Below are positions 38,484-42,288 of a stretch of 64,000 nt of DNA, in pieces. Numbering within the stretch: position 1 is the stretch's first letter; every line of letters starts with the position of its first letter. The notes below the pieces were generated by a model. That model did no database searches. It saw nothing but the letters and a program-made list of their open reading frames with translations, and was not told the DNA's origin. The stretch comes from an uncultured Nitrospiraceae bacterium (lineage in GTDB: Bacteria; Nitrospirota; Thermodesulfovibrionia; Thermodesulfovibrionales; SM23-35), in contig CAVSHB010000001.1 in the NCBI GenBank assembly GCA_963727775.1, forward strand, positions 128,001 to 192,000, in the 5' to 3' direction. The translations under genes were made by a program, and so were the position numbers.

Positions 38484-38558
38484 AGGCGCGTAGCTCAGTG
38501 GGAGAGCGCTTCCTTGACACGGAAGAGGTCAGGGGTTCAATACCCCTCGTGCCTACCA
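38484..38558 (+). tRNA. tRNA-Val(GAC)
   Basis: 75-nt cloverleaf, anticodon arm CTTCC-TTGACAC-GGAAG, TTCAAT T-loop, encoded CCA. Confidence 0.97.
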
Positions 38559-38718: not shown

Positions 38719-38754
38719 TCCCCTCTTAAGCTAAGAGGGGGCAAGGGGGAGTTA
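38719..38754 (+). repeat. Partial palindromic element (copy A) upstream of DUF559 relic
   Basis: CCCCTCTTAAGCTAAGAGGGGGCAAGGGGGAGTTA, near-identical to the 3' part of the minus strand of the copy at 41540-41589. Confidence 0.85.
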
Positions 38755-38866
38755 TGGAGTTTTTAAGAAATGATTCACAATTAAAGCAACGCGCGACGAA
38801 TTAAGATGGAATCAGACTGATAAGGTTTTGGGATAATGAGGTGAGCTTGATATGCAGGGTGTTTTA
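38754..38866 (+). pseudogene. Internally deleted DUF559/Vsr-like endonuclease gene
   Basis: MEFLRNDSQLKQRA / ELRWNQTD / RFWDNEV / DMQGVL across frameshifts, matching the N- and C-terminal motifs of DUF559 proteins with the core missing. Confidence 0.65.
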
Positions 38867-38868
38867 AG

Positions 38869-38906
38869 TAACCCCTCCTATCCTCCCCTTTGCCAAAGGG
38901 GAGGGA
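38869..38906 (+). repeat. Palindromic element (copy B) downstream of DUF559 relic
   Basis: TAACCCCTCCTATCCTCCCCTTTGCCAAAGGGGAGGGA; first 11 nt identical to the copy at 39251. Confidence 0.8.
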
Positions 38907-38990: not shown

Positions 38991-41900
38991 TTAATGATCC
39001 AAGTTCATAAAACTTATAATCTCCTTTTCTAAATCGGCATAAATTTCATCAATGGCTTTCTGTATCTCTATGGTCTTCTGAATTGCAGTCACGATCCGGC
39101 AATAGGTTTGTATTTCATCAAGGGACAAAACCCTCTCTTTCCTGTCCTTCAGCCATTTATCACAGACCTGATAACCACCGATTTGATAGCTCCATGCTTC
39201 CCGTGATATGTTTTCAAAGTATTGCTCCTTATTGATATACACACGGCCTGTAACCCCTCCTTCGCCTCCCCTTAAATTAAGGGGAGGGTGGGTGGGGTTA
39301 TATTTCGGCTTATCAACTCTGTTATCTCCCTTTCCCTGAAACCGTGCAACAGGAGAATCAAGCTCCTGTGATTTTAGCAGGTGAAGGTTAACAAGTCTGT
39401 TTCCGTATTCAGACATCTTCTTGAATAGCTTATAGTCCTTAGTAAACGGCACTCTCGGAAAGTCTATCTTCAGGAACTCTGCATATTTTATCCTGTACGT
39501 CTCTGAATATAGAACAGCATATATGTAATAGAAGATTTCTTCAGGGGATATGTCTTTCTTATATGCTCTCGATAAGGATTTAAATATTTCAGACTTTATG
39601 TTCGGCTCTCTTGTCTCTCCATCTGCATGAAATAAGCCCTTCTTTTCTTTTAAGGAATAAAGATACAAAGGGAAAAAATAAGCATTATCCCGTGATGATA
39701 ATATAGTTTTATCTGTTATGAATTGTGATGCATAAATGTGCTTCCATTCAGGGTCTCTTAATCGTCTTGTCAAAGATAATCCTAAATTATTACTAAAGAA
39801 GTTCTGCATGATTTCAATTCTGTCTCTGTCAATAATGAACGGTAAATAGCAGATACTCCTACTATCAAAGGGGCGGTATGCATAGGTACGTATATGCTCT
39901 ATCCAATTGCTGTTCTTAACAGATTCTCTTGCACTCCCTATTTCAAAATCTGTTGTGGCTTTTAATTCAAGAGACTGAGCAACTAAGTCATCAGGTAAAT
40001 CACCTGTAAATATTCTCATCCTTTGTTTGATTCCTTCATCATCAAAACCGATTACAAAATGGTCTCTATGCGTTGTAACTCCAAACGAATCTTTCTCGAA
40101 TATTTCAGATATTGGGACAAATTGCTCGTATTGGGCTTGAAATGAAAAGTCTTTCTCGACAAAAAAGAAATAAGGCTCTATAGGTACCAGGATTTTCCAC
40201 TCTGTTGTATGAAAGTCAGATTTTCCTAAATAGCTGTATTTACTTTCTCTCAAACCGTGAACATCCTGATAGAAAACCCTGCAACCTTTTCCCTTCTTCT
40301 CTTTCTTAACGAATAGGGCAATGGATACACCCTGCTGAATATCAAAAACATTTTCATCCTTACTTCCATCAGGGGCTTTCTCTCCGATACGACTGTTACC
40401 GTGAAGATTCAGAATATAAATTTCATCGAAGCTATCAAGAAGCGTTTTCCTCATACCTCTGTGAATCAGTCCTGATAGATAGGAATTATTAGTTATCATT
40501 CCTATTATCCCTTTCCCGTCACGGTTAATCTTCCAATGTGCAAAACGGATGAATTTTATATAGTCATCAGACAAGGGCTGAATATTCCTTTCCGTTCTGA
40601 CATCCTGTTTGTAGACATTCATTTCATGTTCAATGAAAGCGGATTTATTAACTGAACTTACCGAATAGGGCGGGTTTCCCAATATTACTAATATAGGCTG
40701 TTCTTTCTTAACCTTTCCCGCAAGGTGCGATTCTTCAGACAGTGAAGCCATTCCCGGTAATTCTGTCTGTGCAAGTTCTTCCATCTCAAGGGTATTTGTG
40801 AGATACAGCTTTACCCTGTCATCCTTCTGCAACCTGTATCCTAATTCCTCAAGCAGGAAGGACATTTTCAAATGACCGATAGCATAGGGAGCCATCATTA
40901 ATTCAAAGGCATAGAAGTTTTTCAAGATATGTTCTTTGATGAAATTCTCCTTGGCTCCCTCTCCGTACTTCGAGACAAACTCATCAACTGCCAGTTTAGC
41001 GGTCTCTGCCAAGAAAGTTAACGTACCTGCGGCTGGGTCTAACACTGTCACGGTTTTGTCTGCGAATCCATCAGCTTTCTTAAACTGTTCCTTCAGGATG
41101 CTATGAACTGAACGGACTATGTAAGAAACGACAGGTTCCGGGGTGTAATAAACTCCCCTCATCTCTCTTGCCTTTGGGTCATACTGAGCAAGGAATGTTT
41201 CATAGAAATGCACAATAGGGTCTTTGCCCTTGCCCTCGTGAAAAAATTGATGTAACAGCTTGTGAATGTCCGTTACGGCAAGGATTTCTGATATATCATC
41301 GATAATCCATTCCATCTGCTGCGGTAGGTCTACAGACGATATAAACCTGAATATGTCTCTCAATATCCCTATGGTTTTTGGGATGCTTTCATACGCAAGC
41401 TTTCTGTTAAATCCGCTCTCTGAACGTGTTCGTGCCGCAAATAGTCCATAAGTAACGGTCTGCGCATAAAGGTCTGAAAATTCATCTTCTGTAAGACTGC
41501 TAATAAGATAATCTTTGAATGCCTTGTAGAATCCATGAATAACTCCCCCTTCGCCCCCTCTTAATTTAAGAGGGGGATGGGGGGCGTTATCCCCCGCCAG
41601 TGCCAAAGCGACTGTATCCTTTAGGAACCGTGTCCGTTTTGCAAGCTCTATTGCAAGGGTTTTTGCATCATAGACTTTCGGTATCGAGAAGGAAAAAAAC
41701 TTCTCAAATATCTGCAATAATTCAGCTTCTTTTTCTACAGGGGGCGCGGTCTTGATCTTACTTATCCAATAGGGTCTACCAATAAGGGCTTTATTAATCA
41801 ATACCCCATTACGGTAAAGCCTGAACTCAAGGAAATTGGTCAATATCAGATTAGGGAAAGTATGCAGGTATCTCTTTAGCTGTTCTGTATCCTCTATGCG

Positions 41901-42149
41901 GTCAAGATTCTCAATGGATGGATCTTTAGCCTCTATGTATCCGGTGATATGCTGCTTTCCATCCCACACCCTGAAATCAGGGTTTCCGCCCTCTGTCTTT
42001 TTAGGAAGAATGGTTATATGGATTATTTTCTTTCCGGTAGAAGTGCTGTATTCACTAAGAAGGTCTTTAAGGACGGGATAGTAGCTTTCTTCCCGTGCAT
42101 CTCCGTGAATGCTTACGTCTGCAATCTGCTTCAAATAGGTTTTCAGCAT
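38991..42149 (-). CDS. Single-chain restriction-modification enzyme (PD-(D/E)XK nuclease, N6-adenine MTase, Type ISP-like C-terminal specificity domain; no helicase)
   Basis: NPDF...YIEAK, GVYYTP, DPAAGT, GNPPY, YRPFD, IDFPRVP, IGGYQVCDKWLKDRK. Confidence 0.9.
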   Translation of the reverse strand: MLKTYLKQIADVSIHGDAREESYYPVLKDLLSEYSTSTGKKIIHITILPKKTEGGNPDFRVWDGKQHITGYIEAKDPSIENLDRIEDTEQLKRYLHTFPNLILTNFLEFRLYRNGVLINKALIGRPYWISKIKTAPPVEKEAELLQIFEKFFSFSIPKVYDAKTLAIELAKRTRFLKDTVALALAGDNAPHPPLKLRGGEGGVIHGFYKAFKDYLISSLTEDEFSDLYAQTVTYGLFAARTRSESGFNRKLAYESIPKTIGILRDIFRFISSVDLPQQMEWIIDDISEILAVTDIHKLLHQFFHEGKGKDPIVHFYETFLAQYDPKAREMRGVYYTPEPVVSYIVRSVHSILKEQFKKADGFADKTVTVLDPAAGTLTFLAETAKLAVDEFVSKYGEGAKENFIKEHILKNFYAFELMMAPYAIGHLKMSFLLEELGYRLQKDDRVKLYLTNTLEMEELAQTELPGMASLSEESHLAGKVKKEQPILVILGNPPYSVSSVNKSAFIEHEMNVYKQDVRTERNIQPLSDDYIKFIRFAHWKINRDGKGIIGMITNNSYLSGLIHRGMRKTLLDSFDEIYILNLHGNSRIGEKAPDGSKDENVFDIQQGVSIALFVKKEKKGKGCRVFYQDVHGLRESKYSYLGKSDFHTTEWKILVPIEPYFFFVEKDFSFQAQYEQFVPISEIFEKDSFGVTTHRDHFVIGFDDEGIKQRMRIFTGDLPDDLVAQSLELKATTDFEIGSARESVKNSNWIEHIRTYAYRPFDSRSICYLPFIIDRDRIEIMQNFFSNNLGLSLTRRLRDPEWKHIYASQFITDKTILSSRDNAYFFPLYLYSLKEKKGLFHADGETREPNIKSEIFKSLSRAYKKDISPEEIFYYIYAVLYSETYRIKYAEFLKIDFPRVPFTKDYKLFKKMSEYGNRLVNLHLLKSQELDSPVARFQGKGDNRVDKPKYNPTHPPLNLRGGEGGVTGRVYINKEQYFENISREAWSYQIGGYQVCDKWLKDRKERVLSLDEIQTYCRIVTAIQKTIEIQKAIDEIYADLEKEIISFMNLDH
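39251..39300. repeat. 50-bp palindromic element (copy C), in frame inside R-M gene
   Basis: TAACCCCTCCTTCGCCTCCCCTTAAATTAAGGGGAGGGTGGGTGGGGTTA; minus strand encodes NPTHPPLNLRGGEGGV. Confidence 0.92.
41540..41589. repeat. 50-bp palindromic element (copy D), in frame inside R-M gene
   Basis: TAACTCCCCCTTCGCCCCCTCTTAATTTAAGAGGGGGATGGGGGGCGTTA; minus strand encodes NAPHPPLKLRGGEGGV. Confidence 0.92.
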
Positions 42150-42234
42150 TTTGCCTTATAGAATATACAATTCAGATGCATAAATAAAGTAAAGTGAAGA
42201 AAATGTGGTGGGCTAAACCATTCAGTTACAGGTA

Positions 42235-42288
42235 GTAGCCGCAACCTTTTGGGTTGCGTCATGAATGCAGGCTAACGCCTGCGGCTAC
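42235..42288. repeat. GTAG-family REP doublet (REPIN-like)
   Basis: GTAGCCGCAACCTTTTGGGTTGCG-N8-GCAGGCTAACGCCTGCGGCTAC: two inverted REPs, each with its own hairpin. Confidence 0.8.

Follow-up and report, generated by a model that had tools for sequence, protein, structure and literature searches.

Two-tailed triplex-type repeats lie in frame within a DrdV-like restriction-modification gene of an uncultured Nitrospiraceae bacterium

Copies C and D are two 50-nucleotide (nt) palindromic repeats that lie in frame inside a single restriction-modification gene of an uncultured Nitrospiraceae bacterium. The window, meaning the whole stretch of DNA analyzed, comprises 64,000 nt (GenBank assembly GCA_963727775.1, contig CAVSHB010000001.1, positions 128,001 to 192,000), and coordinates below refer to it unless a contig handle is given. 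In our reading, which we hold at a probability of about 0.58, C and D are two-tailed repeats of the BoxC/TM class that were inserted at TA dinucleotides, were later trimmed, and now stand in frame in two likely surface loops of an apparently intact enzyme. This reading builds on direct observations of the sequence, the reading frame, covariation between hairpin and mirror-image tail, absence of the repeats from most orthologs, and association of the repeat family with the ends of DUF559 genes. The features that carry the argument are as follows.

38991-42149, minus strand: host gene, encoding a 1052-amino-acid (aa) DrdV-like (type IIL) restriction-modification enzyme in a single chain
39251-39300, minus strand: copy C, a two-tailed subtype B triplex-type repeat, residues 951-966, at a beta-hairpin turn of the C-terminal domain
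41540-41589, minus strand: copy D, a two-tailed subtype A triplex-type repeat, residues 188-203, between two helices

A preliminary description of this DNA, made from its letters, reported two 50-base-pair palindromes read in one frame of an intact gene, and it was right about their position, tips, stems, frame and peptides: one unbroken open reading frame (ORF; 38991-42149, minus, 1052 aa) contains both copies. C and D are each 50 nt long with TAAC..GTTA tips, and their stems differ as two variants of one design. Four of the six frames are closed in C, as first described, and likewise in D. The second open frame, on the opposite strand, encodes a nearly identical peptide, so the orientation in which they are read carries little information. 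Terminal inverted repeats are present as 10-nt tails with a single mismatch in each copy, and folding z-scores range from -3.7 to -4.8 against 200 shuffles. Both insertion sites vary in length among homologs, and structure prediction renders C as a coil between two strands, itself of low confidence within confident flanks; C and D likely occupy surface loops of the enzyme. Two DNA read sets gave sparse cover of the contig and no joints, a cover too thin to inform on excision or splicing.

The defining feature of the repeat is a tail that mirrors the purine arm of its hairpin. Within this genome, 46 hairpin sides carry a G-rich tail, and for 39 of the 40 with an asymmetric arm the mirror register fits better than the direct one. 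The mirror fit is 0.969, compared with 0.871 ± 0.016 when tails are swapped among elements, and none of 1000 swaps reached an equally high value. Other loci behave similarly (0.862 versus 0.761 after swapping), with 29 of 47 sides favoring the mirror register, 10 tied and 8 favoring the direct one. The class-wide pattern searches (30 and 20 loci retrieved, with one per genome in most cases) left the base facing a stem A:T pair free; in 102/102 positions from 51 distinct elements, this unconstrained base is A, T or C, and G is absent. G stands opposite G in 257 of 267 positions, with the register chosen by best fit, and C opposite A, a weaker triad, also occurs. The order of parts is that of a class II triplex: a pyrimidine arm, a complementary purine arm, and a mirror third strand with G:G and A/T:A triads. 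On these sequence features, we assign the C/D family to the class II purine-motif triplex repeats of the BoxC/PIT/TM class, and hairpin plus mirror tail would very probably fold into a purine-motif triplex in single-stranded DNA. C and D have a mirror tail on each side, so either strand is predicted to fold. The TAAC..GTTA ends, initially taken for the inverted tips of a mini-element, are instead the ends of the mirror third strand, and one-tailed copies have the tip at one end only.

Subtype B shows a further regularity. Its tails mismatch at one base, facing a stem A:T pair, in 20/20 fetched copies and, by eye, in 32/32 of the matches listed. Subtype A tails mismatch at the base facing a stem A:T in 16 of 31 copies, and the mismatch was accordingly rejected as a universal feature and is confined to subtype B. 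Common descent could explain it, as could selection against a competing long hairpin.

A profile search of the genome gave 40 locations at E<=1, including a few weak matches; most are intergenic, and the earlier proposal of a dispersed element is borne out. Fourteen of the 40 are two-tailed and 47-51 nt long; among these, only C and D fall deep within an ORF, with a third close to the beginning of an ORF of 322 aa. The remaining copies are one-tailed, 35-38 nt long, and occur singly, in five outward doublets, or capping a DUF559 gene; all five outward doublets pair A with B (typed by eye). The two-tailed 50-mer was considered as a collapsed A+B doublet or as the junction of a circularized cassette, and both ideas were rejected on finding that the two-tailed copies examined have both tails of their own hairpin's type. 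Exact patterns for the two subtypes matched 33 and 20 of 301 genomes of the class, and reversed controls matched none. Related modules are also read in frame in carB and in a Mur ligase of this genome, and a 1346-aa ORF at C3:135943-139983 contains a peptide resembling another in-frame triplex module. In relatives, the loops of housekeeping proteins are repeatedly filled by differing triplex-type modules, including the MurE-type ligase (L252-L261), the CarB linker (L222, L240, L241), BirA (L362-L369, with three modules in L362) and an O-methyltransferase (L332-L346). At L286, L324 and L327, two-tailed copies are nested in or between other triplex-type hairpins, cases that are anecdotal as a test of duplication and were not counted.

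The host enzyme is apparently intact, and may have the restriction and single-strand methylation activity of a type IIL enzyme. Pfam detects Type_ISP_C, N6_Mtase and Eco57I domains, and the protein carries a PD..ExK nuclease motif at residues 57-75, methylase motif I at 371 and NPPY at 492; the nuclease and methylase motifs are invariant across a 90-sequence alignment. Profile and fold searches return DrdV, LlaBIII and LlaGI as best matches. The host shares the nuclease-methylase-specificity order of DrdV, a type IIL enzyme (PDB 7LO5/7LVV), and of the type ISP enzymes LlaBIII and LlaGI (4XQK, 5FFJ), at about 20% identity. Domain, profile and fold searches found no helicase domain in the host protein, which is why we class it as DrdV-like type IIL and not as true type ISP. 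Its architecture is that of type IIL: an N-terminal PD-ExK nuclease, adenine methylase motifs I and IV, and a specificity domain, all in one chain. The source names of its homologs indicate Nitrospirota, and its G+C content is 40%, compared with 45% for the genome.

Both inserts are missing from most orthologs, in agreement with the preliminary description: 203 of 232 orthologs are empty at C and 232 of 248 at D. Relative to the commonest empty allele, C adds a net 13 aa and D a net 8 aa, not 16. The evidence for frame-keeping insertion comes from copy length and from the empty sites at D. Copies of 50 nt lie in genes in 15 of 23 cases, compared with 3 of 28 for other lengths (p=8e-5); in the strictest count, with host gene sites dropped, shared sites merged and terminal cases counted, the figures are 10/18 and 5/28 (p=0.011). 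Here, "in gene" means a Pfam hit or a homolog, by hand curation. Among empty D alleles, 82 of 97 have a TA across a Phe-Ile boundary, in the element's frame. Insertion at TA would add the element's length minus 2, so that 50-nt copies would keep the frame and survive in genes, with later in-frame deletions taking 3-8 host codons; on balance, we consider this sequence of events slightly favored. A gain of length minus 2 at TA, later trimmed in frame, accounts best for the length bias and the TA at D together with the non-restoring sites.

The distribution of filled alleles suggests that C and D are long-standing alleles, shared between genomes and housed in loops that tolerate them, and did not arrive by recent hops from nearby. 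D, together with a remodelled left flank, is found in 7 of 248 aligned rows, the host gene included, and requires 7 changes on the tree. No empty allele with this flank exists in the 248 rows, and a search with the region returned 4 matches, all of them filled. In homologs L107 and L108, D is identical at 47/48 nt, while synonymous third positions are only 52-64% identical; at these junctions, L155 carries the other subtype. Peptides of the C type are found in P0048 and P0114. At site C, palindrome-coded inserts are present in 27 of 232 rows, comprising five triplex-type groups and an unrelated family, and require 24 changes. The nearest relative of the host gene shifts from one window to the next along its length. 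Filled alleles are probably tolerated and would move between genomes through recombination among mosaic genes. In L157, near residue 866 of the aligned protein, an apparently whole REP-associated tyrosine transposase (RAYT-type; REP, repetitive extragenic palindromic), judged from an HUH-like motif, stands in frame between REP-coded peptides.

The strong conservation of D relative to surrounding synonymous sites would also be expected if the inserts were kept by selection, either as loops that tune the enzyme or as folded DNA that promotes allele shuffling of a defense gene. In the same direction, about 7 loops of the enzyme take palindrome-coded inserts among homologs, and a loose motif search picks out 59 of 227 near-full homologs, some of them chance matches (the same motifs flag 31 of 1380 long ORFs of this genome, mostly by chance). 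We regard selection as improbable: the repeat family is about equally conserved at unrelated sites, the same peptides recur in MurE, CarB, BirA and the O-methyltransferase, and most alleles are empty.

DUF559 genes are the candidate partner of the repeat, and a remnant of one lies 346 nt from C.

38720-38905, plus strand: internally deleted DUF559 cassette, with frameshifted N- and C-terminal scraps between two one-tailed modules
about 38720-38756, plus strand: one-tailed A module of the cassette remnant, running into the start codon
38869-38905: one-tailed B-like module of the cassette remnant

The hairpins of the remnant differ from that of copy C. An intact sister cassette is found at C1:1444900-1445319, where the upstream tail extends into the start codon and the C-terminal residues are coded by the downstream module; both 38720-38905 and C1:1101435-1101590 are internal deletions of it. 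The intact DUF559 protein, encoded at C1:1444934-1445323, has 129 aa (PF04480) and matches PDB 3HRL, an endonuclease-like protein. The early proposal that the repeat is tied to DUF559 units is upheld in relatives. Thirty DUF559 loci were fetched, 28 gave a match, and setting aside this genome's own left 27; a triplex module that points inward and passes the strict definition caps 22 of these related genes at one end and 16 of them at both, compared with 5 of 692 control windows. A loose pattern matched 13 of 18 relatives that have a full-length DUF559, compared with 5 of 22 that lack one (by eye, and kin are not independent); an early pattern search, wrongly sized, picked up only 6 of the copies in this genome. 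From these sequence associations, DUF559 is inferred to be the mobilizer of the repeat. With somewhat less than even odds, the Vsr-like DUF559 nuclease, its gene capped by inward modules, would recognize or cut the folded strand and thereby spread the repeat in trans. The tRNA-Val gene at 38484-38558 stands directly before the remnant and the 40% G+C restriction gene, and the tRNA with the 3.7 kb that follow is possibly an integration hot spot. An Rfam search returned the tRNA and a single weak tRNA-like match, and nothing else. Just upstream of the restriction gene start, at 42232-42288, is a GTAG-type REP doublet unrelated to the triplex repeat.

Several observations weigh against the reading proposed here and give room to others. 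Vsr-like nucleases are not known to join strands. FastTree trees are poorly resolved, and a single origin per family remains compatible with the starred branches. Structure prediction is unreliable around D, with a predicted local distance difference test score (pLDDT) under 50 for residues 169-287 and a predicted template modeling score (pTM) of 0.41, so the placement of D between helices is tentative. The needed TA is present in only 4 of 54 empty C alleles; the originally proposed frame-keeping TA insertion is likely from the length bias and from D. Of 267 distinct homologs, 220 could be parsed at D and 99 at C, and none of these alleles (0/220 and 0/99) has the length expected once 48 nt are taken out. 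Three further sites in relatives, namely a loop of the O-methyltransferase, the N-terminus of BirA and the spacer that follows birA, likewise did not match the restored length, and no untrimmed product was found at any of the 5 sites tested. The restored peptides KPKYTGRVYIN and LAGDIHGFY of the preliminary description are arithmetic and not ancestral sequences. Finally, the triplex of the E. coli repeat TM_ECO formed in vitro, but neither in vivo nor within duplex DNA could it be detected (PMC4666352).

That all 5 tested sites differ from "empty plus 48" is what would be expected of replacement without duplication, in which repair of a nearby cut would join the TA ends of the repeat to two distinct spots containing TA, at the cost of host bases during insertion itself. 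The spacer after birA also fits: in L362 and L370 the element fills the whole gap between convergent genes, running from stop codon to opposite stop codon with its ends forming both, where L365 has an unrelated 38-nt spacer. The excess of 50-nt copies in genes is not a prediction of replacement, given that copies of 49 nt as a rule offer two open frames as well; L346 compared with L332-L334 resembles successive trims from one left junction, and L373 retains spacer bases on both sides. We consider replacement a credible minority alternative, at roughly one chance in a handful.

The missing restored lengths count against a TA-duplicating miniature transposon with inverted repeats (MITE) that made two recent clean hops from the adjacent DUF559 unit into the host gene. 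The TA ends, the 48-nt arithmetic, the 50-nt bias, the closeness of the remnant to C and the presence of IS630 genes (10 matches in the genome) would all suit such an element. IS630-type MITEs have ends in common with a cognate transposase element, and the ends of the three IS630 families in this genome are unlike the repeat. The neighboring DUF559 unit is a dead remnant. C and D alleles are common to other genomes (the near-identical D of L107/L108 and the C-type peptides of P0048/P0114) and so are not local offshoots of that deleted unit, a result that goes against the local spread envisaged at the outset. The clean local MITE is largely refuted, and we rate it very improbable.

Spread by an HUH tyrosine transposase of the IS200/RAYT type, or by hitch-hiking, is another alternative, with DUF559 only binding or cutting the repeats as Ssn nucleases do. 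Twenty-two Y1-transposase matches occur in this genome, and one IS200-type family, in several near-identical copies (C1:671990-672590 and sister copies), carries a one-tailed module just before the transposase gene with its tail pointing into the gene, a further point against DUF559 as mobilizer. SsnA, for its part, cuts single strands near its own repeat and modulates transformation, and the accessible text does not show mobilization (PMC11893778). These IS200 copies have terminal hairpins of their own and a module of another stem type, and end-capping across diverged genes was seen for DUF559 in a comparison that covered DUF559 genes. We consider the transposase explanation unlikely, though worth keeping in view.

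A wider proposal is that DUF559 and triplex repeats form an undescribed class of mobile DNA, in which the Vsr-like nuclease would read a three-stranded fold instead of a terminal repeat and mobilize a two-tailed 50-mer. The element's length (a gain of 48 nt at a TA), its pair of open frames and its tail mismatch would then be tuned to colonize protein loops without killing the gene. We regard this proposal as doubtful, and offer it as a speculation. If true, the DUF559-triplex class would give the E. coli BoxC repeats the partner they have lacked and would generate new protein loops as a matter of routine. One genome supplies a test pair, the intact 129-aa DUF559 protein with its A and B modules, and two sequence rules call for explanation, namely the 50-nt length bias in genes and the fixed tail mismatch of subtype B. 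The triplex class itself is already known; our literature search, which mostly did not extend to subscription papers, found no description of a DUF559/Vsr-repeat link, the two-tailed form, the length rule or restriction genes with triplex repeats in frame.

Palindromes read in frame are in themselves unsurprising, being known from Rickettsia palindromic elements and intragenic REPs. The likeness to the Rickettsia elements drawn in the preliminary description is sound in that these are palindromes read in frame in unrelated proteins; they are about 105-150 bp long, a triplex tail or nuclease partner is not described for them in the accessible portions of the sources (PMC10969869, PMC3184786, PMC3733652), and the comparison overlooked the closest class, BoxC/PIT/TM. 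GTAG/CGTC REPs, REP dimers and RAYT loci (Di Nocera 2013, PMC3733652) are alike in their tagged hairpins, inverted dimers, repeat-flanked enzyme gene and intragenic copies, including two in one gene, as far as the accessible text goes. They differ in that the repeat described here lacks a GTAG or CGTC tag and caps a gene for a Vsr-like nuclease (PF04480), not a tyrosine transposase.

BoxC/PIT/TM repeats were already known in the 1990s, and the available sections of Holder et al. (2015, PMC4666352) give them neither a function nor a way of spreading. With BoxC/PIT/TM_ECO, the family shares a G+C-rich unit of ~37 nt, the class II order, two subtypes in inverted doublets, tens of dispersed copies and nearby deletions. 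According to the same partial text, TM_ECO is always intergenic in E. coli K-12, forms A+B doublets with deletions nearby, and has no link to a mobile element. The site-C insert of homolog L107 closely resembles the TM_ECO oligonucleotide by eye (PMC4666352). C and D depart from the E. coli consensus in their stems and are both intragenic, and the two-tailed form sharing one hairpin, the in-frame protein copies and the DUF559 caps are further differences from TM_ECO as set out there; the C/D family is therefore only a sister subfamily of TM_ECO.

The closest tested analogy to DUF559 and its repeat is the pairing of Ssn nucleases with NTS/SRM repeats (Chenal et al. 2025, PMC11893778), in which, as here, a small single-domain nuclease gene lies between copies of a dispersed, oriented hairpin repeat. 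The nuclease is GIY-YIG in Ssn and of the DUF559 fold here, and the accessible text describes no third strand for the Ssn repeats. Ssn activity has been demonstrated, while DUF559 is known here from sequence.
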